Positions 10,113 through 44,431 are shown, numbered from the stretch's first letter. The stretch is DNA of 62,483 nucleotides from Chloroflexota bacterium (GCA_005889075.1 VBDQ01000033.1:1398-63880); one strand, 5' to 3'. The notes: generated by a model from the sequence alone, not told the origin. Numbers and translations: made by a program.

Positions 10113-11726
10113 ATGGCACGTTACGTGCCTCGACTGGCGGGCGAGATGGCAAGCGACGACCGCTTGCGGCGGCTGCACGACGCCACCGCCGAGATCATGC
10201 GCTCACTCGATCTCGAGCACCGCATCCACACGGCGGTCGAGGCGGCGCGGCAGCTGCAGAGCGTCGAGGCGGCCGCGCTGATGCTCCGCGACCCGACCAC
10301 GGACTCGCTGCAGATCCGTGCCTACGAGGGTCTGTCCCAGACCTACGCCTCGCGGCAGCGGATCCCGATGGAGCGAGCGCGCGCGGCCTACCGGGGCGCG
10401 GACGTGCACAGCGTGTTCGACCTGGGGCAGAGCGCGCTCGGGGATGCCGAGCTGGTCCGGGCGGAAGGTCTCGTGCGCGCCCTGGCCGTGCCTCTGGTCA
10501 AGGAGGGGGAGCTCATCGGCGCGCTCATCATCTACACCAAGGACCCGACGCGTTCGTTCTCCGACGAGGACATCGAGATCGCCCACATCCTCGCGGCGCA
10601 GCTGACAATCGCAGTCTCCAACTCGCTTCTCTATCAGGAAGCGATCGCCCAGCGCCAGCTGACGAACGAGATCCTCGAGGCTCTCGGCGAAGGCATCATC
10701 ATCAGCTGGCCGGACGGCCGCGCGGAGCTCAACCCGCGCGCGCGGGAGATCCTCGGTCTCGACTCGGGCACGACCACGCTCGCAGCGATCCGCGCGGCGA
10801 TGCGGCCGGAAAGGCCAGCCGGCGAGGCCGAGGGCCCGCCGGATCTGCCGGTCGACCGCGCGCTACGCGGCGAGAAGATCGCCGACGAGTACACGTTCGT
10901 CGACCCGGCGACCGGTGAACGGCGTGAGGCGTTCGTCACGGCCGCACCGGTGCGCGTCGACGGCACGATCGTCGCGGCGGTAGGGACGATCCACGATCTG
11001 AGCGGCACGCGGGCCGCGGAACGCGAGCGCGAGCAATTCCTCTCGATCGTCTCGCACGAGCTTCGCACCCCGCTCACCCCGCTCAAGGCGCTCGCGCAGC
11101 TGATCCGGTCGCGGATCCGCCGATCGCGCGAGAACGACACGCCTCTCGAGCTCGAGTCACTCGAGCGGAATCTCGCGGCGATCGAGCGTCAGGTCGACCG
11201 GATGAACGGGCTGGTGAACGACCTGCTCTCGGTCTCGCGGGCCGAGCGGGGAACGCTTCGGATGGAGTCGGGAGGATTTGACCTCGCAAGTGTCGTGCGC
11301 GACGTCGTGCAGCGCTACGTTCTCGCGACCGCCGAGGAAGGCAGGCACCGCTTCGAGGTGAAGGTGCCGGAGACCTTCCGGGCCCGCGGTGACCTCGCCC
11401 GGATCGATCAGCTGCTGATGAACCTCGTGGGCAACGCCGTGAAATATTCGCCCAGCGGCGGCGAGATCCGCGTCTCCCTGGTGCGCCACGATGGCACCGC
11501 CGAGATCACGATCAGCGACGAAGGGATTGGCATTCCCGTCGATGAGCTTTCGAAGCTCGGGCACGCGTTCGTCCGCGGTGCCGGTCGCGCCGCGAGCTTC
11601 GCGGGTATGGGTGTTGGGCTCTACGTCGCGCGTCTGGTGGCCGAAGCGCATGCGGGGAGGCTCGCGATCGAGAGCGATGGGGACGGGAAGGGCACGACGG
11701 TCAAGGTGACGCTTCCGCTGGGCTAG
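10113..11726 (+). CDS. GAF-PAS sensor histidine kinase (soluble)
   Basis: GAF, PAS-like region, SHELRTPLT H-box, NLVGNAVKYS N-box, DEGIGI and GMGVGL G-boxes. Confidence 0.93.
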   Translation: MARYVPRLAGEMASDDRLRRLHDATAEIMRSLDLEHRIHTAVEAARQLQSVEAAALMLRDPTTDSLQIRAYEGLSQTYASRQRIPMERARAAYRGADVHSVFDLGQSALGDAELVRAEGLVRALAVPLVKEGELIGALIIYTKDPTRSFSDEDIEIAHILAAQLTIAVSNSLLYQEAIAQRQLTNEILEALGEGIIISWPDGRAELNPRAREILGLDSGTTTLAAIRAAMRPERPAGEAEGPPDLPVDRALRGEKIADEYTFVDPATGERREAFVTAAPVRVDGTIVAAVGTIHDLSGTRAAEREREQFLSIVSHELRTPLTPLKALAQLIRSRIRRSRENDTPLELESLERNLAAIERQVDRMNGLVNDLLSVSRAERGTLRMESGGFDLASVVRDVVQRYVLATAEEGRHRFEVKVPETFRARGDLARIDQLLMNLVGNAVKYSPSGGEIRVSLVRHDGTAEITISDEGIGIPVDELSKLGHAFVRGAGRAASFAGMGVGLYVARLVAEAHAGRLAIESDGDGKGTTVKVTLPLG

Positions 11727-29153: not shown

Positions 29154-29320
29154 CTCCCGCTGCGGCCGCGGTGGGTCCTGTCCCGGGTTCGGGGTTGCGC
29201 CCGAGCCTGCCGGTCCGCTCCCCACCACATGCATGAAACGCGCGGCGGCGCGGCCGGCCGACGGCTCGTACGCAACCCGCTCACCCGTGCCACCCACCGC
29301 GGCCGTGCGTCAGCGAGTCA
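29151..29320 (-). ncRNA. Predicted 170-nt rod-shaped structured element (candidate ncRNA or mobile palindromic element)
   Basis: TGACTC/GAGTCA ends, 13-bp CGGCCGCGGTGGG/CCCACCGCGGCCG stem, further stems. The apical stem uses three G-U pairs only on the minus strand. Confidence 0.6.
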
Positions 29321-29337
29321 CCTACTCTCTGGAGGAT

Positions 29338-30618
29338 TTGGCGGAACAGAGAGCCGATGCCCTCGAAGTAGAACTGGGCGCCGGCGTGGATGCGCCGGCG
29401 CCGCGACGGATCCAATTCGATGCGCTCGGCGTTCCGGTCTTTCGGTGGTATTGGATAACGAGCTGGATCAGCTCCACGGGCGACGGGATGGAGAACGTGA
29501 TCCGCAACGTGCTCGTCTACCAGCTGGCGGGAACAGCCGCGCCGTTCTGGCTGGGGATGATGGTGTTCGCCCACTGGGTCCCGTTCACGTTCTTCTCGCT
29601 CTACGGCGGCGTGCTCGCCGACCGCTACGACAACCGGAAGGTACAGATCGTCGCTCAGCTCCTCCTCATGGCCGCCGCGACGACCGTCGCGTGGGCGACA
29701 CTCGCCGGCTTCGTCAGCACCGGGTGGCTGTTCGGCCTCCTGTTGCTGCACGGCTTCGCGGGCGCGATAGGCGGTCCGGCGCAGCAGACCCTCGTCCACG
29801 CGATGGTCGGCCGCTCGAACCTGCTCTCGGCGGTCAGCCTCAACTCCACCGCGCGGCAGTTCTCGCAAGTCGTCGGACCCGCCGTCGCCGGTCTGATCGT
29901 CGTGCTCTTCGGGCCGGGCTGGGGATTCCTCGTCAACGCGGCGACCTTCGTCCCGCTGCTCGTCTTCCTCGCGGTCGTACGCGTACCGCCTCTCGCCGCT
30001 CAGGAGTCCATTCCGATCCGTAGCTCGCTTCGCGACGGCCTGCGCTTCGTGCGGGCGCGTTCGTTCATCAGCTCGCTCATCGTCGTCGAGATGCTCGGTG
30101 TGATCTTCCTCGGCCACACCTTCAACTCGTTCGTGGTTCTGTTCGCTCACGATGTGCTCCACGTCGGCGATCTTGGGTATGCGTTTCTCTTGGTCGGCAG
30201 CGGCATCGGCGCCGTCGGTGCCGCGATGTATCTCGCCTACGCGCGCGACCGCACGCACAGCGGTCGCTTCGTCGTTGGCGCGGCGGCGGTGGAGATGGCC
30301 GCCGTGCTCGTCTTCGCCTTCTCGACGAACTACACGCTCTCGTTCCTGCTTTTGCTCGTCGTCGGCGCATCGGCGGTGCTCACGCAGTCGCTGACGAATA
30401 CGAAGATCCAGCTGTCGGCGCCGGACGCGCTCCGCGGCCGAGTCATGGGCGCGTATACGTTCGGCACGCAGGGCATGCGCGTCCTCAATGGTCCGATCCT
30501 CGGCGGTGCGGCGATCCTCTTTGGCGCGCCTGCGGCGGTCGCGGGCGCGGCTGCCGTCGTGCTGGCTGGCCTCGGCCTGATCCTCGCACGCGTGCCGCAG
30601 CTCAAGCAGGATCGCTAG
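29338..30618 (+). CDS. MFS transporter (DHA3/EntS-like)
   Basis: About 12 TM, GGVLADRYDNRK motif A, LRGRVMG. Start probably TTG 29338 rather than 29233. Confidence 0.88.
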   Translation: MAEQRADALEVELGAGVDAPAPRRIQFDALGVPVFRWYWITSWISSTGDGMENVIRNVLVYQLAGTAAPFWLGMMVFAHWVPFTFFSLYGGVLADRYDNRKVQIVAQLLLMAAATTVAWATLAGFVSTGWLFGLLLLHGFAGAIGGPAQQTLVHAMVGRSNLLSAVSLNSTARQFSQVVGPAVAGLIVVLFGPGWGFLVNAATFVPLLVFLAVVRVPPLAAQESIPIRSSLRDGLRFVRARSFISSLIVVEMLGVIFLGHTFNSFVVLFAHDVLHVGDLGYAFLLVGSGIGAVGAAMYLAYARDRTHSGRFVVGAAAVEMAAVLVFAFSTNYTLSFLLLLVVGASAVLTQSLTNTKIQLSAPDALRGRVMGAYTFGTQGMRVLNGPILGGAAILFGAPAAVAGAAAVVLAGLGLILARVPQLKQDR

Positions 30619-30629
30619 CGCCGGTCCGC

Positions 30630-31333
30630 GTGACGCAGTTCGTGAAATCGCACGGGCTCGGGAACGACTACCTCGTCCTGGACCCGAGGGCGCTTCCTTT
30701 CGATCTGACCCCCGAGGCCGTGCGGGTGATCTGCGATCGCCATTTCGGCGTTGGGAGCATGGCATCACCGATCGCGAACGGTTCCGGATCCGCACCGCGG
30801 GCGGGATCGTGACGGTCCGGCTCGAGATGGACGGCGATCGGGTGGCAAGGGTGACCGCCGGCATGGGCCGCGCCACCTTCGCCGACGTCGACGAGCTCGA
30901 GATCGGAGGCGGACGTGTAGGGGTCACGGTCGTCTCGCTCGGCAATCCGCACTGTGTCGTTCTCGTCGACGACGTCGCGGCGGTCGATGTCCCACGGCTC
31001 GGTCCACTCGTCGAGCGCCACCCTGCGTTCCCGAATCGGACCAACGTCCAGTTCGCGCAGGTGCGCTCGAGGCGCGACCTCGCGATCCGGATCTGGGAGC
31101 GCGGCGCGGGATACACGCTCGCGTCGGGCACAAGCAGCTGCGCGGCGGCGGCCGCGGCGCACCGGGCCGGGCTGATCGATCGCGAGGTCGTCGTCACGAT
31201 GCCCGGCGGCGAGCTCGAGGTGCGCATCGCCGACGACGGCGAGATCTGGCTACGCGGCCCGGCGGAGGAGGTGGCGAGCGGGGACTTCAGCCCCGAGCTC
31301 CTTCGTCGCCTCGCGCACAAAGAAGGCCCATGA
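30630..31333 (+). pseudogene. dapF: Diaminopimelate epimerase with internal deletion/frameshift near 30758
   Basis: FVKSHGLGNDY...CDRHFGVG in one frame; GNPHCV, FPNRTNV, WERGAGYTLASGTSSCA in another. First active-site segment is absent. Confidence 0.85.
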
Positions 31334-32637
31334 CGCTCACCGAAGGGATCTTCCCCGACACGGCGAACGTCAGCCCCACCGGACATCTCGCCGTCGGTGG
31401 TAGCGACCTGGTCGAGCTGGCGGGACGCTATGGCACGCCGCTCTACGTCTACGACGAGGCCACCATCCGCGCTCGCGCCCGCGCGTTCCGCACCGCGCTC
31501 GCCGGTTACCCGGCCCGGACCACGGTCTGTTACGCGGCGAAGGCGTACTGCGCGCCCTGGATCCTGCGGCTCGCGGCGGAGGAAGGGCTCGGCCTCGACG
31601 TGGTCTCGAGTGGCGAGCTTCACACCGCGGCGCTCGCCGGCTTCGCGTCGGAACGAATTTCGTTCCACGGGAACAACAAGACCGAAGACGAGCTCGAGAT
31701 GGCGCTGCGGCTGCGGGTGGGCCGCGTGGTCATCGACAACCTCGAGGAGATCGGCCGGCTCGCTGATCGCGCGACCGCTGCGGGGGTGCGCCAGGCCGTC
31801 CTGCTCCGCGTGAGCCCGGGCGTCACCGCGCACACTCACACCCACCTTCAGACCGGCGCGGTGGACACGAAGTTCGGATTCGGCCCGGACGTCGTTGGCG
31901 CCGCTGCGCGAGCGGTGCTCTCCCGTCCTGCGCTCGACCTCCGGGGCCTTCACGCCCATATCGGATCTCAGATCGGCGAGCTCGAGCCATACGCCGCGTC
32001 CATCGAGCGCGTCTTTGCCGTCGCGCAGGAGATCGCGCGGCTCGGCGCTGACATCCGTGAGATCAGTCCCGGCGGCGGATATGCGGTCCGCTACCGCCCG
32101 GGCGATCCGGTGGTCGATGGACCGGGAATCGCACGCGAGGTGGCGCGGATGGTCGCCGAGTCGTCGCGCCTGCATGGCTTCGCCCGGCCCCCCGACCTCG
32201 CGATCGAGCCAGGCCGCGCGCTCGTGGCGACCTCGGGTATCGCCCTGTATCGCGTCGGCTCAGTAAAGGAGCTCCCGCGCGTCCGCACATACGTCGCCGT
32301 CGACGGCGGCATGGCGGACAACATCCGACCGACCGCTTACGGTGCGGAATACACCGCCGTGCTCGCCAATCGCATGCAGGACCCCGCCGAGGCCACGTTC
32401 GCGATCGCGGGGCGCTACTGCGAATCGGGTGATGTGCTCATTCGCGAGGTTCGCATGCCGCGTCCGGTCGCGGGAGATCTCGTAGCGGTCCCCGTCTCGG
32501 GCGCGTACCACCTTGCGATGGCGAGCAACTACAACATGGTGCCGCGGCCCGCCGTCGTAGTAGTCGAACAAGGTGGCGCGCGTCTGGTCCGCCGCCGCGA
32601 AACGAACGACGACCTTCTCACGTCCGACGTGGTCTAG
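31330..32637 (+). CDS. lysA: Diaminopimelate decarboxylase
   Basis: YGTPLYVYD, YAAKA, HGNNK, HIGSQI, EPGR, CESGD, GAY...MASNYN. Confidence 0.96.
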   Translation: MTLTEGIFPDTANVSPTGHLAVGGSDLVELAGRYGTPLYVYDEATIRARARAFRTALAGYPARTTVCYAAKAYCAPWILRLAAEEGLGLDVVSSGELHTAALAGFASERISFHGNNKTEDELEMALRLRVGRVVIDNLEEIGRLADRATAAGVRQAVLLRVSPGVTAHTHTHLQTGAVDTKFGFGPDVVGAAARAVLSRPALDLRGLHAHIGSQIGELEPYAASIERVFAVAQEIARLGADIREISPGGGYAVRYRPGDPVVDGPGIAREVARMVAESSRLHGFARPPDLAIEPGRALVATSGIALYRVGSVKELPRVRTYVAVDGGMADNIRPTAYGAEYTAVLANRMQDPAEATFAIAGRYCESGDVLIREVRMPRPVAGDLVAVPVSGAYHLAMASNYNMVPRPAVVVVEQGGARLVRRRETNDDLLTSDVV

Positions 32638-32664
32638 GATTGAAGCGACGCGAGGAGGTTGATC

Positions 32665-32988
32665 ATGCTCGAGACCGGCACCATCGAGATGACACCGGAG
32701 GCCGCCACCAAGGTCCGTGAGCTGCAAGGCGGCGATCCCAAGCGCGCGCTCCTCCGCCTCTACGTGATGGGAAAGACGTGCTGCTCATATCAGTACGGCC
32801 TCGCGTTCGACGCGACGCCGGAGGATGCCGACACCGTGAAAGACGTCGGCGGTATACGCGTGGCGGTCGACCAGGTGAGTGCGCCGTACTGCGACGGCGC
32901 GAAGATCGAGTGGGTCGACGGACCCGAAGGCACGGGCTTCCTCGTGCGCAATCCGGCGATGGGTGGCGGCTGCAGCTGTAACGGGTAG
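32665..32988 (+). CDS. A-type Fe-S carrier (HesB/IscA family)
   Basis: MTPEAATKV, CCSYQYGLAFD, GF..RNP, terminal CSC. SD GGAGG. Confidence 0.87.
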   Translation: MLETGTIEMTPEAATKVRELQGGDPKRALLRLYVMGKTCCSYQYGLAFDATPEDADTVKDVGGIRVAVDQVSAPYCDGAKIEWVDGPEGTGFLVRNPAMGGGCSCNG

Positions 32989-33068
32989 CGCCCCGGCCGC
33001 TTCCACGCTCGGCCGGCCCGCGGCCGAACTGTCAAGATCTGTTGTGGCCTCGAAAGCATGGGGGGCCT

Positions 33069-33125
33069 TAAGACCGAGTAACGGTAATGACCGGTCCGTA
33101 ACGTGGCTGCTGACGTTCCTTAACG
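33069..33125 (+). promoter_or_regulatory. Helically phased TRACG-like direct repeats upstream of the subtilase gene
   Basis: TAAGA 33069, TAACG 33079, TGACC 33088, TAACG 33099, TGACG 33111, TAACG 33121. Confidence 0.35.
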
Positions 33126-33161
33126 ATCTCCCAAAGCTCTTCTCAACCCGGCGCCCCTACG

Positions 33162-36100
33162 GTGGCCGACCGGATGGGGGACCAGGGGGCTTCACGGCTG
33201 GCGCCGCGTTGGTCAACGCGTCTTCTCCTGCTGCTCCTCTTTAACTTCATATCCGCGGCCCCGTCCATGGCCTTCGCCGCCCCGCAGAGCCCCGTTACCC
33301 CGACCGATAGCGCGATCCCCACAGCGACTTCCGGCAGCGCGTCGACCGAAGAGACGGTCCCGATCCTCGTGAGATTCAAGCCGGGAGTCTTGAGGTCGGA
33401 GGTCGATGCCGCGATCAAGGCCACCGGCGGCGCATCGATGCGGGAACACGCCCAGCTCGGCCTGCGTGTGGTCGAGGTGCCCGCCGCCGCGCAAGAAGCG
33501 GTTCTCACCGCGTATGCACGACACCCCTTGGTCCGGTCCGCCGAGCCCGCCCACCGTGTGACCGCGGCGGGATCCCCCAACGATCCGCTGTACGCCCAGC
33601 AATGGGCCCTGCCGAAGATCTCGTGGGACAAGGCCTACGGGGTCATTCCGATCCTTGGCTCGGCGAAGATCGCCGTTCTCGACACGGGAATCGATGCCAC
33701 GCAGCCCGATCTGATCGGCCGCCTTTCGCTGGGCACGAGCTTCGTCGGCGGGGTCGCCACCACCGACCTGAACGGTCACGGCACCGAGGTGGCTGGGATC
33801 GCGGCGGCGAACGTGAACAACCTTGTCGGGATGGCGGGCGTCGCCTTCAGCGGCGCCAGTGTCGTACCGGTGCAGGTGCTTCATACCGACGGCACCGGCT
33901 GGGACAGCGATGTCGTCTCCGGAGTTTTGTGGGCCGCCGACAACGGTGCGCAGGTCATCCTCATGAGCTTCAGCAGCACCGCGTTCTCCTCGGCGCTGCA
34001 GGACGCGGTCAACTACGCGTGGAGCAAGGGCGCGATCGTCATCGCCGCCGCGGGTAACCAGGGCTCCACCGCCGCTTCTTATCCGGCGGGGATGGCCAAC
34101 GTGATCGGGGTTGCCGCCACCGACGCGAATGACGCGGTCACCGCGATCAGCAACACCGGCAGCGCCGCCGTCGCCGCCCCGGGCGTCGACATCTACGCGA
34201 CCGCGCCGGCCGCCAGTTACGTGAAGATCAGCGGGACATCCCCGGCCGCGGCCGAGACGGCCGGCCTCGCAGCGCTTCTGATCGCGAGCGGGAAGAGCAA
34301 CAGCGCCGCGTCGGCGCAGATTCGCGGGGCGACCGATCCGATCGCGGGGCGATCCTTCGGACGCATTAACGTCGCGAAGGCGCTCGGTGCGCCGGTGACG
34401 CCGCCGCCGACACCCGCCCCGACCGCGACGCCCCCACCGGGTCCGACGCCGACGTACACGATCGGCGCCGTCAACTTCATGCGGCTGCGTCAGGTCAACG
34501 CCACCGGGCAGGAGAACTACATCTACACGTCGGGCGACGTGATCTATCCCGATGCCAACGTGACCCCGGCGGGAACGCACTACAAGGTCGTGGTCACTGA
34601 CGCCGCTGGCACGCCCCACGGGTCGTTCTCGTGCGGCACCGCCCCTTTCACCGGAGCCAGCAACACGTACACGGTCCAGAGCACGGACCCGGTCTCGAAC
34701 GCGAGCGACTGGACGTTCACCATCAACCAGTACTCCGCGACCGACACCACCTGCACCGGCACGATCACCAACACGGATCATTTGGCCTTCGACGTTGCGA
34801 AGGCGACCGCATACACCGACTCGAGCCTCTCGACGACGGCGACCCAGTACTCCAGCGGAGACACCGCCTACGTCGTGATCCAGGGCGTGCAGCAGAGCCA
34901 GAGCGACTACAGCACGATCTGGATCCCAACCGGATTCACCGATCTGACCGCGACGTGCCACAACACGACTGGAAGCGACCAGCCCGATACGAGCTCGGTC
35001 GGACGGCTGCCCAGTCCTGCCGGCTCGTTCCTTCAGTACCCACCGGGCGCGAGCGGCGATCCGTGGAACCTGCTCGCGAATTACGACTCGACCGGTCAAG
35101 TGTGTCCGCTAACGACCCCGGGTCAGTGGCAGATCAAGGTGCAGAAAAACTCCACGCACTTCGTCACGCTCAACGCCTTCACGGTCGTGGCCGCGGCCCG
35201 TGGGACCCTCGTGGTCACCAAGAACACGGTCGGCGGCAACGGAGTCTTCACCTTCACCACGAGCGACGGCCCCGGCGGCCCGCCCGCGACGTTCAGCATC
35301 ACGACGACAGGCCCGCTTACGGCAGGCGTCGGGTCGGCGACGTTCGCGGTCAACGCCGGGACGTACACGATCACCGAGCAAGTGCCGGCGGACTTCGTGC
35401 TTAGCGGCGCCGGTTGTCCCGCGCCGATAGGGATGAGTCCGACTGTCACGGTCGCGGTCGCCTCGGGCGGAACATCGAGCTGCAGCTACAGCGACACCAA
35501 GCGCGCGACGCTCACGGTCACGAAGAACACTCAGGGCGGCAACGGCACCTTCACGTTCAACACGAATGGCGGCACCGGGAGCGGGCTGCCCGCGACGTTC
35601 ACCATCAGCACGACCGGGAACGTCACGACAGGCGCGGGCGCCACGACGTTCACGGTGGCCCCGGGCACGTACGCGATCACGGAGATCGTCCCGTCGAGCT
35701 TCGTGCTGCTGAGCGCGAGCTGCTCGCCCGGTACGAGCGGCACCAGCGCCACGGTCACCGTCGCCATTCCAATGGGAACCACGAGCGGCTCCTGCGCCTT
35801 CAGCGATGCGGCCAGTGGTTCGGTCGTCGTGACAAAGAGCGCGCAGGGCGGCGATGGCAGCTTCACGTTCACACTGACTGGTGGGCCACAGAGCGTAACG
35901 ATGTCCGCGACGATCAACACGATTCTGGGGACCGGCACGACGACGTTCAGCGCCCTGGCCGTCGGCTCGTACGACGTGTCCGAGACCGTTCCCAGCAGCT
36001 TTTACGCGGTTGGCCCGACGACCTGCCCCGCTGTTGTGAGCGGCGGCTCGCCGCCGCCCACCTGTTCATTCACGGACAAGAAGCGAGGTCAGATCCTGAT

Positions 36101-38352
36101 CACCAAGAACACGTACGGCGGGGATGGAACGTTCACCTTCACGCTCACCGGCGGGCCTGAGAACGTCTCCCAGACCGCAACGATCACCACGACCGCCTTC
36201 GTCGGGACCACGAGCTTCACCGGCCTTGCGCCTGGTTTGTATTCAGTCTCCGAATCGGTACCCGGAAGCTTCTACCCGGCAGGCGCAACACAGTGCAGTG
36301 CCACGGTCGAGTCCGGGGGCACGACCATGTGCACGTTCACCAACGACCTGCGTGGCTCGGTGGTGGTGACCAAGAACACCGTCGGTGGGAACGGCAGCTT
36401 CACGTTCACCCTCACCGGCGGACCTGAGACGGTGAGCGCCACGGTGACGCTCTCGACGAGCGGCCCCACCACGGCCGGGACAGGCACCGCCACGTTCTCC
36501 GGGCTCGCTCCAGGCAGCTACGCCGTGACCGAAGGCGCGAACGCTGACTTCGTGCCTGTCGCCAACGTGACCACATGCTCGGCGATGGTTGTGGCGGGCC
36601 AGGCGTTTGTCTGTCCCTTCGCGAACAACGCCCGCGGCTCGATCGTCGTGACCAAGAACACCGTGGGCGGCACGGGCAGTTTCACCTTCACCCTCACCGG
36701 CGGCCCTGAGTCGGTGAGCGCCACCGCGACGATCTCGACGAGCGGCACGACCATGTCCGCGAGCGGCACGGCTACCTTTGGCGGTCTCACCCCTGGCGCC
36801 ACGTACACGGTCAGCGAGGGCGCCAACGCCAGCTTCACACCGAGCGGGTTTACGACATGTGTCGCCGTCATACCAGCAGGTGGCTCGTTCCCCTGCAGCT
36901 TCACCAACAACGCCAACGGCTCGGTCGTGGACGATCACGACCGTCGGTGGAACCGGCACCGCCACCTTCAGCAACCTTCCGCCTAGCCCGACCGCCAGCT
37001 ACACCGTGAGCGAGGCCGCCAACGCCAGCTTCAGCGCGATGGGGCCGACCAGCTGCGCGGTCACCGTGAGCGCGGGCGCGCCCAGCGGCTGCAGCTTTAG
37101 CAACGTGGCCTTGGGCTCGGTGGTGGTGACCAAGAACACCGTGGGTGGCAACGGCAGCTTCACCTTCGTGCTGAGCAACTCGGTCACCATGAGCGCGACG
37201 GTCACCACGACCAACAACACCGGCAGCACCACCTTCAGCGCGCTTGCCCCGGGCACCTTCACCCTGAGCGAGATCGTCGACTCGGGCTTCGTGTTCGCGA
37301 GCGCGACCTGCAGCGCCGGGGTTCTTCCGCCGCCGCCGCCGCCTCTGGGGCCGAGCGGCTCGGGTCCGATCACCTTGACGGTGAGCGCGGGGATGCAGAC
37401 TGACTGCAGCTTCACCAACAACGCCCGCGGTCAGATCGTGGTGACCAAGAACACCACCGGCGGTCAGGGCGTCTTCACCTTCACGCTTTCCGGCGGGCCA
37501 AACTCGGCCAGCGCGGCCGCGACGATCACGACCGTCGGTGGAACCGGCACCGCCACCTTCAGCAACCTTCCGCCTAGCCCGACCGCCAGCTACACCGTGA
37601 GCGAGGCCGCCAACGCCAGCTTCAGCGCGATGGGGCCGACCAGCTGCGTCACCACGGTGAGCCCCGGCGCGTCCAGCGGCTGCAGCTTTAGCAACGTGGC
37701 CTTGGGCTCGATCGTCGTGACCAAGAACACCGTGGGCGGGAACGGCAGCTTCACCTTCACCCTCAGGTCGGGCACGATGACCGCGACCGCGACCATCTCC
37801 ACCGTTGCCGGTAGCGGCACTGTCACCTTCTCTGGTGTCGCCCCCGGCACGTTCACCGTGAGCGAGGGCGTCAACGCGAGCTTCGCTCCGATGGGCTCGA
37901 CGACCTGCAGCGTGAACGTGCCTCCGGGTGGAACAGCGACCTGCAGCTTCACGAACGTGAAGAAGAACGAAGGCTTCATGACCGGGGGCGGACAGATCAA
38001 GACGGATGACAAGAGCGAGGCGAACTTCGGCGGCAACGCTCGCGGTACCGCCGGCGTTCCGAGCACGGCCAAGGGCCATTTCAACTACCTGGACCATGAT
38101 CGCCTGCACCTCGATGGAAAGGTGACCGCGATCCTCGCCGTCGATCCCAGCCAGCAGGAGATGTGGTTCTGCTTCACCGACGACAAGAGCGGAAACCAGT
38201 ACACGGTGCGGTGGCGCGACGTCGACGAACCGAACCAGGGCAAGGACAAGCTTGGGCTCTGGAGCGGCTGCGAGCTGACACCCACACCGCCGATCCAGGC
38301 GACGAACAACCCCGTCGACAAGGGGAACGTGCAATGGCATCCGCCGCACTAA
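33162..38352 (+). CDS. Giant secreted S8 (subtilase) protease with 10 Thr-rich Ig-like (SpaA/prealbumin-like) repeats; split by a frameshift at ~36930
   Basis: Signal peptide, prodomain, triad AVLDTG/NGHGT/GTSPA, Pro-Thr linker, VVTKNT...FTF...YTVSE...C...CSFTN repeats, C-terminal TGGG...FGGN...YLDH...GNVQWH domain. Combines ORFs 33162-36986 and 36778-38352. Confidence 0.85.
36930..37648 (+). repeat. 128-bp exact direct repeat (36930-37057 = 37521-37648)
   Basis: Identical GACGATCACGACCGTCGGTGG...GACCAGCTGCG at a 591-bp offset. Confidence 0.9.
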
Positions 38353-38371
38353 GGATGGAGGTGAGATCGCG

Positions 38372-38860
38372 ATGAAGGTCAGACGGCTCGGCGCGGTCGC
38401 GGCACTCACGCTGTTGATCGCGATCGTCCCGCCCCAACCGAGCGGCGTGGCGACCGGAACCGACGTTACCGAGACGCAGATCTCTGCGGCGGCGATCGGG
38501 TACTTCGATTCGGGCACGTCCTTCAATGGCGTGCCGATCCAGAGCGCGACCTTCGGCATCGGCGTCATCGTGTATTCCGACGGCTCCGGTCTCGGAAACT
38601 TCGAGATCAAGTTGACCGGGACCACGCCGCTCAATCAGGAGCAGAACATCACCGTGGTCGGGAACGTGAACGCGGGAACGGTGAACGTCGACGGGAGCGT
38701 GACGTTCTCCGGCAACGGGACTCTAGACATGGGCGACGGGAGTTTGCCGCTCGCGGTGCCGTTCGCGGTCATCGTTACAGCGAACGGCCTCCAGCTCACC
38801 GTCGGCACATCGGCCTTGCCGACTCTGCCAGTCAGCGACGGCAGCATTTTCATCGGGTAG
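38372..38860 (+). CDS. Small secreted beta-rich hypothetical protein
   Basis: SD GGAGGTG, signal-like MKVRRLGAVAALTLLIAIV, Thr/Gly/Val-rich. Confidence 0.75.
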   Translation: MKVRRLGAVAALTLLIAIVPPQPSGVATGTDVTETQISAAAIGYFDSGTSFNGVPIQSATFGIGVIVYSDGSGLGNFEIKLTGTTPLNQEQNITVVGNVNAGTVNVDGSVTFSGNGTLDMGDGSLPLAVPFAVIVTANGLQLTVGTSALPTLPVSDGSIFIG

Positions 38861-38997
38861 GCGCGCGCGGTGACCCGACTGGAGGTTGCACAGGCGCCGA
38901 ACCAACGCGGGCTGGACCGCGCCTTGCTACGACGAGCGACGGTGGTGGCCCTGCCTAGCAGCGGCTCGGGATCCTTCGCCGCTGCGCGTCTTTTGTA

Positions 38998-40893
38998 GTG
39001 CGCGCTGCCGTCGCCGAGCGCCGCAGGCTCAGTCCGAGGACGAACAAGGCGCGGCCGCGCCAGTCAGCTGCAGTCCGGCCAGCGTCCGCGGTACGGATCG
39101 ATTGGCGGACGTTGGTCGTCGGCGGGGCGGTGGTGGGTGCCTCGGCAATCCTCTACGGAGCGACCGCGGCGCGCGACATCGTCATCGGCGACTCGCCCGA
39201 GTTCGCGACGGTCGCGTTCACGCTCGGCGTCGCCCACCCGCCCGGATATCCGCTTTTCACCCTCATCGCCCATCTGTTCACGCTGCTGCCAGTCGAGCCG
39301 CTTCCCTTCCGGGTGAACCTCCTTTCGGTCGTCTGCGGCGCCGCAACGGTTGGCGTCTGCTACCTGACGGCGTGGCGGCTGACGACTAATCGGTGGGCGT
39401 CCGCTGGGATGGCGATCCTGCTCGCGATAAATCCGCTCTTCTGGAAATGGTCGCTCGCTATCGAGGTGTTCCCGCTGAACAACCTCATCGCCGCAACGAT
39501 GATCTACGTGCTCGTCCTTTGGCAGGAGCGGCCAACCCAAGTGCGCTTGCTCGTGCTCGCTGCCTTTTTAGGCGGACTTGGGATGAGCAATCACCAGACC
39601 ATCGTGCTGCTGGTGCCTGCGGTGCTGTACCTCCTGTGGCGCCAGCGAGCCGTGCTGCTCGCGCGGCCGCGAATGCTCGCGTTCTGCGCCGGCGCATGCG
39701 CTCTCGGGTTGATCCCGTATCTCTATCTGCCGTGGGCCGCTGCGCAGCGCCCACCATTGAACTGGGGGATGATCTCGTCCCTCGACGATCTCGCTGCGCA
39801 TTTCCTCCGTCGCGATTACGGGACCGGGCAGTTGATCAGCGCACCGGAATATCAGGGCGGTTCCGCGATCGCACGAGTCGCGGCGCTCCTCAACTCGTTC
39901 GGATTAGTCAACGGGACGCTCACGGCCCTCGGCGCGGTCCTCGCCTATCGCCGGCTGCGTTGGTACTTCTGGTTCGCGACCGTCGGTTTCGCGTTTGCTG
40001 GTCCGCTGTTCGTCATCTACTCGAACGTCAATCTGTCGGTCGGAGTGACGCTCTTCGTGCTCGAACGGTTTTTCTTGCTGTCTCTGGTCGTGATGGCCCC
40101 GCTCATGGCGTTCGGTCTGGTGTTCCTGACCGAGCTCGCGGTCGCGGGGCTCCGCGGCCGCCGGAGTGCGGCGCGCGCTGTTGTGGCGCTCGGCGCGGCT
40201 GCGGCGGTGCTCGGCGGAGTCGCGTTCAACTACCGGATGGTCGACCAGAGCGAGAACCATCTGGCACGTAATTTCGCGAGCGACGTCCTCGCCACCTTGG
40301 AACCAGGGTCGATCCTGCTCGCCGGTGGAGACGAGACCGTTCTGCCAATCTCTTACCTGCAGGCGGTGGAGCAGCTGCGGCCGGATGTCACGCTCGTGAT
40401 GCTCGGCTTGATCCGCACCGACTGGTACATGCGACAGCTCAGGGAGCGTCACCCGGATCTCGTGCTCCCCTTCGCTCGCTTCGACAGTATTTCGGGAACG
40501 ACAAGAGCGTTGGTCGACGCGAACCGTGGGCGACCGATCGGGGTGATCTGGGCGGCGCCGGACGACAGTCTCAAGACGAGCTACTGGTATTACAGCCGTG
40601 GACTCGTCCTTCAGCTGCTGCCGATGTCGCAGGATGTGACCCTCGACGAGATGGCATCGGAGAACGATCGGTTGCTCGGGAGCTACCGCCTGCCGGCGAT
40701 CGACCAGCTCAAGATGGGCACGTTCGAAAACGCGATCCTCGAGCAGTACGCGATGTCCGCCTACCGCGTCGGCAATGAGTACGAGCACGCGCAGCTCTAC
40801 GACGGTGCGCGGCAGTGGTACGACCGTGCCTTGTCGATCGATCCGGCGCTGGGTCCGGCTCGCTGGCGGCTCAGCCAGATCCCGCAGAGCTGA
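38998..40893 (+). CDS. DUF2723 / TMEM260-like GT-C glycosyltransferase (putative protein O-mannosyltransferase) with C-terminal TPR
   Basis: GDSPEF...LGVAHPPGYPLF, EVFPLN, SNHQT, PYLYLP...PLNWG, RPDV, terminal TPR-like YDRALSIDP. Confidence 0.85.
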   Translation: MRAAVAERRRLSPRTNKARPRQSAAVRPASAVRIDWRTLVVGGAVVGASAILYGATAARDIVIGDSPEFATVAFTLGVAHPPGYPLFTLIAHLFTLLPVEPLPFRVNLLSVVCGAATVGVCYLTAWRLTTNRWASAGMAILLAINPLFWKWSLAIEVFPLNNLIAATMIYVLVLWQERPTQVRLLVLAAFLGGLGMSNHQTIVLLVPAVLYLLWRQRAVLLARPRMLAFCAGACALGLIPYLYLPWAAAQRPPLNWGMISSLDDLAAHFLRRDYGTGQLISAPEYQGGSAIARVAALLNSFGLVNGTLTALGAVLAYRRLRWYFWFATVGFAFAGPLFVIYSNVNLSVGVTLFVLERFFLLSLVVMAPLMAFGLVFLTELAVAGLRGRRSAARAVVALGAAAAVLGGVAFNYRMVDQSENHLARNFASDVLATLEPGSILLAGGDETVLPISYLQAVEQLRPDVTLVMLGLIRTDWYMRQLRERHPDLVLPFARFDSISGTTRALVDANRGRPIGVIWAAPDDSLKTSYWYYSRGLVLQLLPMSQDVTLDEMASENDRLLGSYRLPAIDQLKMGTFENAILEQYAMSAYRVGNEYEHAQLYDGARQWYDRALSIDPALGPARWRLSQIPQS

Positions 40894-42213
40894 TCAGCCC
40901 ACGAACCCCCAGCGCGCCCAGAACTGGAACAGCAGCAAGAGCAAGATCGCGCTCACCGAGAGCCACGCGATCGCCATCCAGCGACGGGTCGAGAGCCACA
41001 TCGCGAGGAAGATGAAGCAGGGGAACAGGACCAATACGTAGCGTGACGCACTCCCCAGGGGCGAGATGTAACCGACGTGCGTGAACAGCAGCGCGAGCGA
41101 GGGCAGCGTGTAGAGCGCGTACGCAGCCGGAAGCCGCCTCGCCGCGACGAGGGCGATGCCACCGAAACCCAGCAGATTGACCAGGTTCAGCGCTTCGATC
41201 TCGGCGAGGTTTCCGTTCGCGCCGCCCGCCAGGATGTGGTTCCAGCCCGCTCTCAAGGCTTCCCACGGCGGCACGACCTGGTATCCCCACGCCGCGAGGA
41301 CCTCGAGTGAGGAGCGTTGTTCGCCCACGATGATCCGTTCGTAGAGCGTGACCGCCGCGGTCCCGGCTATGGGTAAGGCCGCGGCCATGAGCGCAGCGCC
41401 TGGCCGCCGCCCGCCACGGCGCATGATCCAGGGGAGCACGTCGTACGTTCGTAGGTACTCGAACGCGATCGCGAGCGCGAGGAAGATCCCTTGCGCGCGC
41501 GTGAGCGCCGCCAAGAAGCCGACCGCCCCCGCGGCCCACGGCCGGTCAGTCCTCGCAAGCCAGAACGCCGCGAGCGTCAGCGCGAGGAAGAGGCTTTCGG
41601 TGTAGGGCGCCAACAGGAAGAAACCGACCGGAAAGAGCGCGGTCAGCAAGACCGCGAGATACCCCACGGTGCTTGCGCCCGTTTCTCTTTGGGCGATTCG
41701 GTATAGCAGCCACATGGCCCCTACGAAGCTCACGCTCGTGACCAGAAGCTCCGCCACGACGATCTGGCCGCCGAGAGGCACGGAAACGACCCGCGAGAGG
41801 AGGGGATAGAGCGGAAAGAAGGCGGTCGTCCCATTGCCCGCGGCGTAGCCCTCCTCTGCGATGTGCTGATACCAGAGAGCGTCCCAGCGTTGCCACGTCG
41901 AGAGGAGTTCGCTCCATGGCTCGCCGCCCGTGATCACGAGGTCCTCCCAGTTCCCATGTACGATCCCGGCCCGCGGAGCGAGATTGATCGCAGCGACCGC
42001 CACCACCCCGAGGACGACACGCAGCCCGACGACGAGCACCACGCCGAGGCGCAAGCCGTCTCGTCGCGTCGTGAGTTGCGATTGACTTGCTGGTGAGGAC
42101 CTCGGTCGTGTCGGTCGCGAGCCTTCTTGGGACGGCGGCCGCGCGCCCGACCCGGCCGCATGCCGGCGCGAGCCCCGCTGTGCGTGCCGTTTGCCGCGTG
42201 CCCCTCTGGCCAC
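40894..42213 (-). CDS. PIG-V/GPI-mannosyltransferase-2-like GT-C membrane protein (true start probably downstream of 42213)
   Basis: RWDALWYQHIAEEGY, AFFPLYPLL, APYTESLFL, SRYVLVLFPCF. Confidence 0.85.
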   Translation of the reverse strand: MARGARGKRHAQRGSRRHAAGSGARPPSQEGSRPTRPRSSPASQSQLTTRRDGLRLGVVLVVGLRVVLGVVAVAAINLAPRAGIVHGNWEDLVITGGEPWSELLSTWQRWDALWYQHIAEEGYAAGNGTTAFFPLYPLLSRVVSVPLGGQIVVAELLVTSVSFVGAMWLLYRIAQRETGASTVGYLAVLLTALFPVGFFLLAPYTESLFLALTLAAFWLARTDRPWAAGAVGFLAALTRAQGIFLALAIAFEYLRTYDVLPWIMRRGGRRPGAALMAAALPIAGTAAVTLYERIIVGEQRSSLEVLAAWGYQVVPPWEALRAGWNHILAGGANGNLAEIEALNLVNLLGFGGIALVAARRLPAAYALYTLPSLALLFTHVGYISPLGSASRYVLVLFPCFIFLAMWLSTRRWMAIAWLSVSAILLLLLFQFWARWGFVG

Positions 42214-42235
42214 CCTGCGCGCCCGCGCGAGCCTA

Positions 42236-44431
42236 TCAAGTCTCCGGCGCGAGAGACTCCCACAGAACCTCAGCCAGGTGGCGCACGCGTACGGGCTTTC
42301 GGCGGGTATCGAGCCCTCCGCGCAGATGCGTCAGGCAGCCCGGGTTGTCAGCGATGACGCAATCGACCCCCGTCGCTTCGATGTTGGCGAGCTTGCGCTC
42401 GAGCACCCGGTTCGCGACCTCGGGGTACTCGAAGCTGAAGCTTCCGCCGAACCCGCAGCAGACCGACGACTCCGACATCTCCACAATCTCGACGCCGGCG
42501 ACGTCGCGGAGCAGCGTCCTCGGCTCGTCATGCACGCCGAGCACGTTCGCCGACTGACATGCGTCGTGGTAGGTCGCGCGAAGACCGAGCGCACGTCCCT
42601 TGAGGCCACGGCCGCTCGCGCGTTCGGCGGCGAAAGTCGTGAACGGTCTGATCCGCTCGGCGAGGCTCCGGGCGCGCACCGCCCAGGGAGCAGGGGCCCT
42701 CGATCCCGTAGGGTCTGGCTCCGCGGCGAGAAGCCGGGGGTAGTCATCGGTGATCGTGATCGCGCACGAGGACGAGGGGATCACGATCCGGTCGGCCCTC
42801 ACGTGCTCGAGCGCCGCGATCGCATCCTTCGCCATCGTGATCGCCGTCGGCCGATCCCCGCTGTTGAGCTGCGGCAGACCGCAGCAGCGGCGGCCTTCGA
42901 CCATGTGCACCTCGCAGCCGAGGCACTGGAGCACGCGTGCCGCGGCGTAGCCGGCCGATGGGAGGAAGTGGTCGACGATGCACGAAGGAAAGAGCGCGAC
43001 CTGCATGTCGGCTGCCGTCGGATTGGTCTGCGTCACTTCCCGCGCGCGGTAGTGGAGAGGGTGATCGGCGACGGCTGGAAGGCTCTTCTCCTGCGCGATC
43101 GTGCCGAAGGGAAGGCGAATGACGCCGTCACGGCGCAGCGGATTCTGAAGCGTCGCCAGCCACCCGGTGACCCGATCGATGCGCTCGGGTGACGACCACT
43201 GCCGGAGAAAGAGCCGTTTCGCCCACGACATGCCGGTCCGCTCGATCGCCTTCGCGCGGACGTCGGTGATGAGCGCGGCGAGCGGGATGCCGACCGGACA
43301 GACGGTGTCGCAGGCATTGCAGCCCATGCACATGTACTGCTCGTTCGCGACGCTGTCGATGCCGTGGTGCCATGGTGAGACCACCAGGCCGATCGGCGCG
43401 GTGTAGATATGGCCGAACACGTGGCCGCCGACCTCGAGATAGCTCGGGCAAACGTTGCTGCACGCGCCGCAGCGAATGCAGCGGAGCGCGTCGCGGAAGA
43501 AGGGGTCCTCGCGCATGGCGGTGCGACCGTTGTCGAGTAGGACGAAGTGCAGCTCCTTCGGCCCATGGACGCCGATCTGGGTCTTGAGCTCGATGTCGGC
43601 GCTGCGCGACGGGCCGGTGATGAACTGCGTGTACGAGGTGATCTTCTGGCCGGTACCGCTGCGGGCGAGCAGCTTCACGATCGCGACCGCATCGTCGATC
43701 GTCGGGACGATCTTCTCGATCCCGACGACGGCGATGTGCACCGAGGGCAGCGTCGTCGCGAGATCGGCATTGCCCTCGTTCGTGACGAGCATGAGCGTGC
43801 CGGTCTCGGCGATCAGCGCGTTTCCGCCGGTGATGCCGATGTCGGCGTCGAGGAAGCTCTGGCGTAGCTCCTTCCGCGCGACGGCGACGAGCGAGGCGGT
43901 GTCGTCCGGTACGGGGTGACCGACGACCTTCGCGAAGAGGCGCGCGACCTCCTCGCGCGTCTTGTGGATCGCCGGAGCGATGAGGTGCGAGGGACGCTCT
44001 CCGGCGAGCTGGATGATCCACTCGCCGAGGTCCGTCTCGACCGTTCGCACGCCCTGCGACTCGAGGTGTTCGGTGAGACCGATCTCCTCCGTCGCCATCG
44101 ACTTCGACTTCACGACGAGCTTCGCCTTTTTCGCGCGGCAGATCGCGCCGACGATCCGGCGCGCCTCGTCCGCGTCGACCGCGCGATAGACCTTCGCCCC
44201 GACGGCCTCGGCCTCCCTGGTGAAGCGTTCGATCAGCTCGGGCATCGCGTCGATCGCCCAGGTCTTTCGCGTCGTCAGGTCGGCGCGTAGGCCTTCCCAA
44301 TCGATCTCGCGCATACGGTTGTCGCGCCGCTCGCGGAGCTCCGGCAACGCGCGGCGCAACGCCGTCCGCAGGCGCTCTGACGACAGCGCCCGGTCCAGGC
44401 GCCGGTGGAACTCGGTCTTAGACGCCGTCAC
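42236..44431 (-). CDS. Lactate utilisation LutB (LUD + 4Fe-4S) fused to LutA-like CCG domains
   Basis: KSKSMATEE, ETDLGEWIIQL, TNEGN, CIRCGAC, CCG x2, YHDAC, DNPGC. Confidence 0.9.
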   Translation of the reverse strand: MTASKTEFHRRLDRALSSERLRTALRRALPELRERRDNRMREIDWEGLRADLTTRKTWAIDAMPELIERFTREAEAVGAKVYRAVDADEARRIVGAICRAKKAKLVVKSKSMATEEIGLTEHLESQGVRTVETDLGEWIIQLAGERPSHLIAPAIHKTREEVARLFAKVVGHPVPDDTASLVAVARKELRQSFLDADIGITGGNALIAETGTLMLVTNEGNADLATTLPSVHIAVVGIEKIVPTIDDAVAIVKLLARSGTGQKITSYTQFITGPSRSADIELKTQIGVHGPKELHFVLLDNGRTAMREDPFFRDALRCIRCGACSNVCPSYLEVGGHVFGHIYTAPIGLVVSPWHHGIDSVANEQYMCMGCNACDTVCPVGIPLAALITDVRAKAIERTGMSWAKRLFLRQWSSPERIDRVTGWLATLQNPLRRDGVIRLPFGTIAQEKSLPAVADHPLHYRAREVTQTNPTAADMQVALFPSCIVDHFLPSAGYAAARVLQCLGCEVHMVEGRRCCGLPQLNSGDRPTAITMAKDAIAALEHVRADRIVIPSSSCAITITDDYPRLLAAEPDPTGSRAPAPWAVRARSLAERIRPFTTFAAERASGRGLKGRALGLRATYHDACQSANVLGVHDEPRTLLRDVAGVEIVEMSESSVCCGFGGSFSFEYPEVANRVLERKLANIEATGVDCVIADNPGCLTHLRGGLDTRRKPVRVRHLAEVLWESLAPET

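Follow-up and report, generated by a model that had tools for sequence, protein, structure and literature searches.

A candidate O-glycosylation island of a Chloroflexota bacterium encodes a Thr/Ser-rich surface protease beside TMEM260-like and PIG-V-like GT-C enzymes

Introduction

Autotransporter heptosyltransferases, HMW1C and the serine-rich-repeat systems are dedicated glycosylation systems that are encoded beside a repeat adhesin and act in the cytoplasm with nucleotide sugars. The actinobacterial PMT enzymes (family GT39) are glycosyltransferases of the C fold (GT-C) that work at the outer face of the membrane, where they use polyprenyl-phosphate-mannose to modify Sec-translocated, Thr/Ser-rich secreted proteins, and they constitute a core, general system. 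Here we describe an accessory island that encodes a Thr/Ser-rich secreted protease of the S8 (subtilase) family, a small secreted beta protein, a homologue of human TMEM260 (family DUF2723) and a PIG-V-like GT-C enzyme, and that may serve the O-glycosylation of its own protease. The island lies in a stretch of 62,483 nucleotides from a Chloroflexota bacterium (GCA_005889075.1 VBDQ01000033.1:1398-63880), referred to below as the window, which is contig C109 of a 2.83-Mb genome in 144 contigs that is 87% complete (G000).

The closest described relative of the DUF2723 enzyme is human TMEM260, which is reported to be a protein O-mannosyltransferase for IPT domains (PMC10214176; bioRxiv 10.64898/2026.03.17.711096) and to be inactivated by the D52A substitution (PMC10214176). 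The preprint on the human enzyme describes mannose contacts by D52, H67, Y267 and R355, a phosphate contact by R264, and a luminal palm in which D441 adjoins the acceptor threonine; it gives the acceptor sequon as P-x5-P-x3-G-P-x2-[GA]-G-G-x2-[TS] (bioRxiv 10.64898/2026.03.17.711096). Among the papers listed in our literature search, judged by title and abstract, no substrate or activity of any bacterial TMEM260/DUF2723 member was found, and the only study on DUF2723 was the human one, in agreement with an earlier note on this DNA, made from the sequence alone, which knew of no defined substrate for the bacterial proteins.

Results

The island and its parts, with positions counted from the first letter of the window, are listed here.

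30616..42238, no strand: 11.6-kb accessory island flanked by MFS_3 (29233-30615) and ldhH (42236-44431)
33162..36929, plus strand: S8 subtilase-SpaA gene, first frame, with signal peptide, propeptide, S8 domain, Thr-rich middle region and repeats
33363-33548, plus strand: Fervidolysin N-pro domain (Pfam)
33663-34325, plus strand: Peptidase_S8 domain (PF00082, E 1.4e-34)
34452-35201, plus strand: Thr-rich middle region of 250 aa (residues 431-680), between the S8 domain and the repeats
from 35202, plus strand: SpaA/CnaB-type repeats of the first frame (Pfam SpaA_4/SpaA)
36925..36984, no strand: junction with the frame break at 36929/36930, uncovered by contigs in four of four runs
36930..38352, plus strand: same gene, second frame, with the remaining SpaA repeats to about 37962 and then the post-COAP-1 domain
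37963-38349, plus strand: post-COAP-1 domain (NCBIfam NF041523; score 42.5 bits, cut-off 40), spanning residues 400-521 in the second frame
38372..38860, plus strand: small secreted protein of 162 aa, modelled as an 8-stranded beta-barrel; predicted partner of the post-COAP-1 domain
38998..40893, plus strand: TMEM260-like GT-C glycosyltransferase of 631 aa (PF11028)
39190-39192, plus strand: codon of D65 in the TMEM260-like gene, where GDSPEF aligns to human GDSGEL
40894..42213, minus strand: PIG-V-like minimal GT-C glycosyltransferase of 439 aa (PF04188), likely start at 42054 (386-aa form)

All four open reading frames (ORFs) were found where the earlier note had placed them, and the stop codons of the two enzyme genes indeed abut at 40893/40894. 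Sequence comparison argues that the DUF2723 protein is a genuine TMEM260 homologue that keeps the catalytic Asp and the donor-binding residues. It matched PF11028 with 115 bits (cut-off 24.2, E 4.2e-33) and matched PMT_2 as well, and its residues 40-501 aligned to residues 26-497 of the human TMEM260 chain 9rql_A (phmmer E 2.7e-52), so that the proposed likeness to TMEM260 was upheld both with the family model and with the human protein. The acidic residue that had been pointed out in GDSPE is D65, the counterpart of human D52. When positions were counted by hand from the printed alignment, in which the chain numbering reproduces the numbers of the paper, D65, H80, R271, Y274, R357 and D445 aligned with human D52, H67, R264, Y267, R355 and D441, respectively, and D65, H80, R271, R357 and D445 were invariant among 26 homologues of 48-73% identity. 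The TPR tail also ascribed to this enzyme is weak: TPR_2 matched residues 588-617 with an E value of 6e-4, which is under the cut-off, and the matches to designed TPR proteins in the PDB had E values of 0.003-0.8. A public form of the protein has 587 aa, which suggests that translation may begin about 44 codons downstream.

The protein encoded on the opposite strand matched the PIG-V model PF04188 with 36.2 bits (cut-off 22.4, E 5.8e-9), and its orthologue in a related genome (G013) matched with 29.2 bits. Its structural model had a predicted local distance difference test (pLDDT) score of 93.4 and a predicted template modelling (pTM) score of 0.93 with an alignment of 37 sequences, among which D58 in the motif WQRWDALWY of the first outer loop was invariant. 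Foldseek returned GT-C enzymes only, 12 of them at E <= 0.001 with TMq 0.43-0.51; the matches were AglB, ALG9, ArnT, EmbA/B/C, ALG12, PimE and GPI-MT-I. A profile search found no sequence relative in the PDB, and no solved PIG-V chain turned up there in sequence or Foldseek searches. The designation as a PIG-V-like GT-C enzyme therefore held for the fold and the acidic residue, but only positions 51-215 of the 443 in the PF04188 model were matched; the modelled structure indicates a minimal GT-C enzyme. Since a public 386-aa form (P0121) is 100% identical to the protein, translation is likely to start at 42054.

We examined whether the two enzymes occur together elsewhere. The DUF2723 and PIG-V-like genes are adjacent in three of the four loci of the SpaA clade (see the tree below), and of 73 distant loci with sufficient DNA downstream, five have a PIG-V-like homologue directly 3' of DUF2723 (phmmer E 2.8e-24 to 3.7e-11). 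The two genes overlap in four loci (L069, L078, L087 and L099), while in L086 (9902-12976) both enzymes are fused in a single ORF of 1025 aa. All five coupled distant loci lie in pilin operons, and the three that were annotated have the order PilB, PilT, PilC, pilin, DUF2723, PIG-V-like GT-C, prepilin peptidase. Because of this adjacency, overlap and fusion in pilin operons, the gene neighbourhoods argue that the TMEM260-like and PIG-V-like enzymes form a recurrent, sometimes fused, pair beside surface-structure genes.

The coupled pilus loci come from metagenome-assembled genomes of candidate phyla radiation (CPR) type and from others labelled 'Gammaproteobacteria'.

The block had been described as sitting between housekeeping genes, and uvrB, uvrA, MFS_3 and ldhH were identified at its flanks with Pfam and NCBIfam. 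In two congeners that lack the island (G004 and G020), MFS_3 and ldhH are convergent neighbours with 360 and 353 nt between them, from which it follows that all four genes were inserted together; they travel together as one island. The insert of G000 contains a C-terminal fragment of DapF, two small ORFs and the four locus genes. In G013 the S8-SpaA gene begins 86 nt after the end of MFS_3, and in a third genome (G008) the island is distributed over two contigs, with MFS_3 and the start of the S8-SpaA gene on C162 and the remainder on C139.

Among the 41 related genomes tallied, which include the unpublished G010 and G021 (no positive observation depends on these two), close DUF2723 homologues (62-72% identity) were present besides G000 in G013 and G008 only, and the SpaA repeats of the window type were confined to the same three genomes. 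DUF2723 proteins of 27-33% identity were found in eight genomes from other families of the class. The PIG-V-like orthologue (63%) was found only in G013, where it is adjacent to DUF2723 and co-oriented with it; proteins of 44-48% identity are encoded in G011, G016, G007 and G014, and most congeners have one at about 33-35%. The paralogues in G011, G016 and G007 lie among ABC-transporter, NMT1, BaxI and M20 genes.

Several side observations concern the insertion site. The ORF at 30809-31330, possibly a gene fragment, matched DapF only in the C-terminal half (model positions 146-268 of 270). On contig C139 of G008 (locus L020, 3070-11398), a C-terminal piece of ldhH occurs twice (7832-8203 and 11091-11396), a sign that the site may have been rearranged more than once; the genes that follow DUF2723 there encode a methyltransferase, an unknown protein of 449 aa, an Alg9-like GT22 and a collagen triple-helix repeat protein.

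The candidate client is encoded 0.6 kb upstream of the TMEM260-like gene. The earlier note had presented it as a protease of about 1700 aa; its coding sequences are real, but they do not form a single ORF. The ORF at 33162-36986 (plus strand, 1274 aa) was confirmed, the second frame is 36778-38352, and the frame changes at 36929/36930. The Asp, His and Ser motifs of the S8 family are readable in the translation as LDTGID, HGTEVAG and GTSPAAA. The middle region had no Pfam match, nor a relative in any fetched locus. SpaA_4 matched six stretches in the first frame and three in the second, the SpaA model matched too, and the repeats amount to about 10 units of about 90 aa with a Thr plus Ser content of 31-32%, as expected from the previous count of ten very Thr/Ser-rich beta-sandwich repeats. 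The units follow the pattern G-x-[IV]VVTK[NQ]T-x-GG-x-G-x-FTFTLTG ... TYTV[ST]E ... C ... C-x-FT[ND], and VVTK, V[ST]E and FT[ND] are present in each of them. We take the Lys, Glu and Asn/Asp of these motifs to be the isopeptide-forming positions of CnaB-type domains.

The frame break itself lies among the repeats: 36930-37167 is 95% identical to 37521-37758, and 79 nt are missing here in comparison with the repeat at 37427. In four of four soil runs, the best-matching of which may be the source sample and whose contigs can drop variants, contigs reach 36924 and then read for 28 letters like the normal repeat start at 37436; 36925-36984 is uncovered, and the bin depths are fully explained by a piece beginning at 36985. 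The orthologue of G013 is an intact ORF of 2095 aa with nine SpaA_4 stretches. Because the junction was not covered by contigs in any of the four runs, the frame break is probably a collapsed repeat or a mis-join in the assembly, and a programmed frameshift at 36929/36930 was rejected on the same grounds.

The small protein that follows was modelled as an 8-stranded barrel (pLDDT 90.3). VIA-align gave NspA (Z 9.5) and OmpA (Z 9.3), root-mean-square deviation 3.3 Å, among 8-stranded barrels at Z 8-9.5, which is only slightly over the usual background of 7-8, and Foldseek with this model gave no PDB match at E <= 0.001. Its family has 186 representative relatives, most of about 160 aa and standing alone, some forming the C-terminal domain of DUF11, Big_3_5, beta-helix or ice-binding-like proteins. 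The family is present in 14 of 21 congeners, far more than carry DUF2723, and DUF2723 was found in only 3 of the 24 small-protein loci examined (L198-L221). A post-COAP-1 domain, on the other hand, stands beside the small protein in 21 of these 24 loci: directly upstream in 13, in the same ORF in seven and ambiguously placed in one. When the post-COAP-1 domain and the barrel were submitted together to complex prediction, the score was 0.92, compared with 0.11 for the best of three controls; 58 of 80 solved complexes attain this mark, as do 2 of 110 mismatched pairs, counts that are only approximate with our own alignments. The runs agreed in at least 99% of contacts, with pLDDT of at least 94 for the partner. 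The prediction supports binding of the barrel to the post-COAP-1 domain. Given this predicted complex and the pairing across loci, the small protein is better regarded as part of the protease module: that it is a secreted beta protein stands, but it belongs with the post-COAP-1 tail of the protease and not with the transferases. The two parts form a conserved module, which may serve monoderm Chloroflexota as an uncharacterised device for anchoring or capping.

Post-COAP-1 and small barrel occur as a module in 16 of the 41 related genomes, with varied passengers (Calx-beta, DUF7601 and SpaA). The identity of an outer-membrane barrel was set aside, as no Omp85 was found in G000 at its 87% completeness.

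Loci beyond the genus were collected with an alignment (A1), used instead of the DUF2723 protein alone, which as a query gave four distant loci. The loci retrieved with A1 were the best 79 of 596 confirmed genome stretches and the best 78 of 566 metagenome stretches. Close homologues outside the genus (42-58% identity) were found in 50 loci, 37 of which have at least 1.5 kb of upstream DNA. Genes were called with our own heuristic based on GC content at third codon positions (GC3), which can choose the wrong strand and did so once (L191); the Pfam annotation covered 87 neighbours in 14 of the 20 close genome loci, together with 83 of the 123 candidates in the close metagenome loci, and 59 distant loci were compared by local search with profiles derived from the window.

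One metagenome locus (L100, 56% identity) reproduces the order of the window: a protein with five SpaA_2 repeats and a post-COAP-1 domain, the small protein, DUF2723 and a convergent PIG-V-like fragment. In L027 and L028 (Gemmatimonadaceae) and in L111, a subtilase of the I9-S8-PKD type is encoded immediately upstream of a DUF2723 gene whose product is 47-50% identical. In L028 a SpaA_2/SpaA_4 protein of 1246 aa is encoded 3.8 kb upstream as well, on the opposite strand, L021 (Blastocatellia) has an S8-Big_7 protease 4 kb upstream, and a GT2 of the polyprenyl-phosphate-sugar synthase type stands immediately upstream in L021, L120 and L134. Other close loci have S9, C1 or M13 peptidases, sugar-nucleotide genes or nothing telling. 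In a quick tree, SH-aLRT (Shimodaira-Hasegawa-like approximate likelihood ratio test) values supported the SpaA clade at 93 and the S8-PKD clade at 100, and the relation between the two was not settled. Since the five genomes counted have only 7-10 S8 genes each, an S8 gene immediately upstream in two separate clades is unlikely by chance. The recurring association of DUF2723 with repeat proteins that had been proposed thus received support from L100 and from the S8 proteases of a second phylum-level lineage, but most close homologues, those of Verrucomicrobiota, lack it. As judged from these neighbourhoods, the association with a protease or repeat protein is lineage-specific and is no rule of the family.

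The following was also seen in these loci. The subtilase of L027 (2-8429), L028 (7764-16959) and L111 (5901-14428), all three of Gemmatimonadaceae type, has a Pro/Thr-rich linker. Downstream of DUF2723 there are three PMT_2/TPR (TMTC-like) GT-C genes in L027 and L028; one was seen in L111, which also has a GT2 gene. The order serA, TMEM260-like gene, eamA, in places followed by VIT1, was found in the Verrucomicrobiota loci L022-L025, L035, L036, L104, L109 and L114, and in L024 the TMEM260-like gene is present in two tandem copies.

With respect to the host, no Omp85 was detected in the 87% of the genome that is available and a sortase is present, which makes a single-membrane envelope likely; by its gene content, G000 would thus be a monoderm Chloroflexota. 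Elsewhere in G000 there is a GT2 protein that resembles polyprenyl-phosphate-sugar synthases, with all matches under the curated cut-offs, and it is a possible donor synthase. A promoter scan gave no promoter-like site, and terminator-like sites were mostly within the repeats. The window stretch was present in 20 soil runs from 17 studies.

Discussion

The explanation that we favour, tentatively and with somewhat less than an even chance of its being correct, is that the TMEM260-like enzyme is dedicated to O-glycosylating the stalk of the protease, probably with mannose, and that the PIG-V-like enzyme takes part in this pathway. We infer the glycosylation itself as well as its acceptor, its sugar, the order of the enzymes, their roles as initiator and extender and the benefit. 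The host would be a soil Limnocylindria (Chloroflexota), and its island may be envisaged as two modules, a surface protease and a pair of GT-C transferases. In the first, a Sec-secreted S8 subtilase would be carried on a stalk of at least 10 Thr/Ser-rich beta-sandwich repeats of the CnaB/SpaA type, at the end of which the post-COAP-1 domain is predicted to dock onto the neighbouring small beta-barrel protein. In the second, the TMEM260-family enzyme and the minimal PIG-V-like enzyme would both use lipid-linked sugars. The active site of the TMEM260-like enzyme would face the outer side of the cytoplasmic membrane, a site that the single-membrane envelope fits, and would receive a hexose, most likely mannose, from a polyprenyl-phosphate donor. 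The sugar would then be transferred to Ser/Thr of the unfolded, newly translocated stalk, much as human TMEM260 acts on unfolded IPT strands, and the PIG-V-like enzyme would probably add a further sugar. Such a glycan could shield the stalk from proteolysis, including that by its own protease, or assist the folding of the repeats.

Several of the results weigh against this explanation. The repeats of the neighbouring protease are not IPT domains, and the human acceptor sequon is absent in its full form. GGxx[ST] does follow strand A in 18 of 22 repeat starts and resembles the central part of the human sequon, but the domain consensus itself contains it, and we count it only as a lead; a high Thr/Ser content is likewise usual in such domains (27% in L028 and 31% in L100). 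The island contains no donor synthase, G008 has no PIG-V-like gene beside DUF2723, and the PIG-V-like paralogues of 46-48% identity in G011, G016 and G007 stand in unrelated contexts. The three genomes of the genus are kin with one island and are counted as one event. Beyond the genus, a protease or repeat protein is encoded immediately upstream in only 4 of the 37 close loci (L027, L028, L100 and L111), the Verrucomicrobiota loci have serA upstream in the nine scanned and eamA downstream in 10, a surface protein being absent from the vicinity, and the tree is weak enough to leave room for a shared origin of the SpaA and S8-PKD clades.

A first alternative is that the TMEM260-like enzyme O-glycosylates many secreted proteins in general, as the actinobacterial PMT does, that the protease is at most one of these clients, and that its adjacency to the enzyme merely reflects co-transfer in the island. 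The close homologues in Verrucomicrobiota keep a conserved serA-DUF2723-eamA context in which a client gene is not nearby, and the contexts of DUF2723 vary by lineage among GT2, S9, C1 or M13 peptidase and sugar-nucleotide genes. Moreover, human TMEM260 is described as reading a short degenerate motif on unfolded chains (bioRxiv 10.64898/2026.03.17.711096). A general system would be expected to belong to the core genome, however, whereas the enzyme is accessory here, and within the genus it was found only together with the SpaA-stalk protease (3 of 41 genomes), always less than 1 kb away; we consider a general role somewhat unlikely. That the two GT-C enzymes instead make or modify a glycopolymer, lipid-linked or of the cell wall (a lipoglycan, for instance), with the protease a mere neighbour in the island, is in our view unlikely. 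The model of the PIG-V-like protein does resemble enzymes with lipid-linked acceptors (ALG9, ALG12, PimE, ArnT, Emb and GPI-MT-I; TMq 0.45-0.51), the protein has a weak match, at 37.7 bits where the cut-off is 150, to the NCBIfam model 'cell surface glycopolymer formation protein', and its paralogues are common in the class in genomes without DUF2723 (25 of 41). The TMEM260-like enzyme, however, aligns with its human counterpart through the luminal domain to residue 501 and keeps D445, which corresponds to the aspartate beside the acceptor Thr, and the enzyme pair recurs within pilin operons, immediately after the pilin gene.

One could also argue that adjacency is meaningless at a variable insertion hotspot that has gathered unrelated genes. 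The site is indeed variable, as G000 has an additional DapF fragment and an Fe-S gene and G008 has additional genes and two C-terminal fragments of ldhH. We nevertheless consider this very unlikely, since the gene order is kept in four loci at 56-72% protein identity, and an S8 protease is encoded immediately upstream in a second lineage even though S8 genes are few (7-10 per genome).

Dedicated glycosylation of the stalk, if it occurs, would extend TMEM260-type O-mannosylation to bacteria and would show how a secreted protease protects its own stalk. The island offers a compact candidate pair for such a study, in that an enzyme with all the human catalytic residues is encoded with a highly repetitive client and a second GT-C enzyme. 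A much broader proposal would be a bacterial two-enzyme O-mannosylation dependent on lipid-linked sugar, in which a TMEM260-type initiator reads GGxx[S/T] at the unfolded junction of strands A and B in each Ig-like stalk repeat on its exit from the Sec channel and a PIG-V-type enzyme extends the mannose, the animal IPT pathway being descended from it. We regard this proposal as distinctly unlikely. Were it true, the system would be of ancient bacterial origin and would have served surface stalks, pilins and proteases, and the island would provide its first testable enzyme-client pair.

Of the known systems, human TMEM260 (PDB 9rql/9rqm/9rqn) is homologous to the island enzyme through the GT-C core and into the luminal domain, with all six named residues matched, and in both cases the client or candidate client consists of Ig-like beta-sandwich domains in which a GG turn precedes Ser/Thr where strands A and B meet. 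Unlike the human enzyme, the one described here is bacterial, has a short and weak TPR tail, would act on CnaB/SpaA-type domains in which the full sequon is missing, is encoded beside its candidate client, is paired with a second GT-C enzyme and is known so far from its sequence. With the actinobacterial PMT it would share a GT-C active site at the outer face, a monoderm host and Sec-translocated, Thr/Ser-rich clients, but it belongs to a different family (PF11028, not PMT/GT39) and is accessory and linked to one locus. The PIG-V-like protein resembles PIG-V/Gpi18 (GPI mannosyltransferase II) in its Pfam match, its minimal all-membrane GT-C fold and the invariant Asp of the outer-loop motif WQRWDALWY; the match is partial, however, as noted above, and a GPI pathway is not expected in bacteria.

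The arrangement proposed here, one enzyme for one repetitive surface client in an accessory locus, has its counterpart in the autotransporter heptosyltransferase, HMW1C and serine-rich-repeat systems, whereas the enzymes of the island are of membrane GT-C types and would use lipid-linked sugars outside the cytoplasm. In the CPR-type loci with pilin-linked TMEM260-like genes (L069, L078, L086, L087 and L099), the TMEM260-like gene likewise comes after a surface-structure gene and before a PIG-V-like GT-C gene; these enzymes differ from that of the island in belonging to distant subfamilies (25-32% identity), and their candidate client is a type IV pilin.

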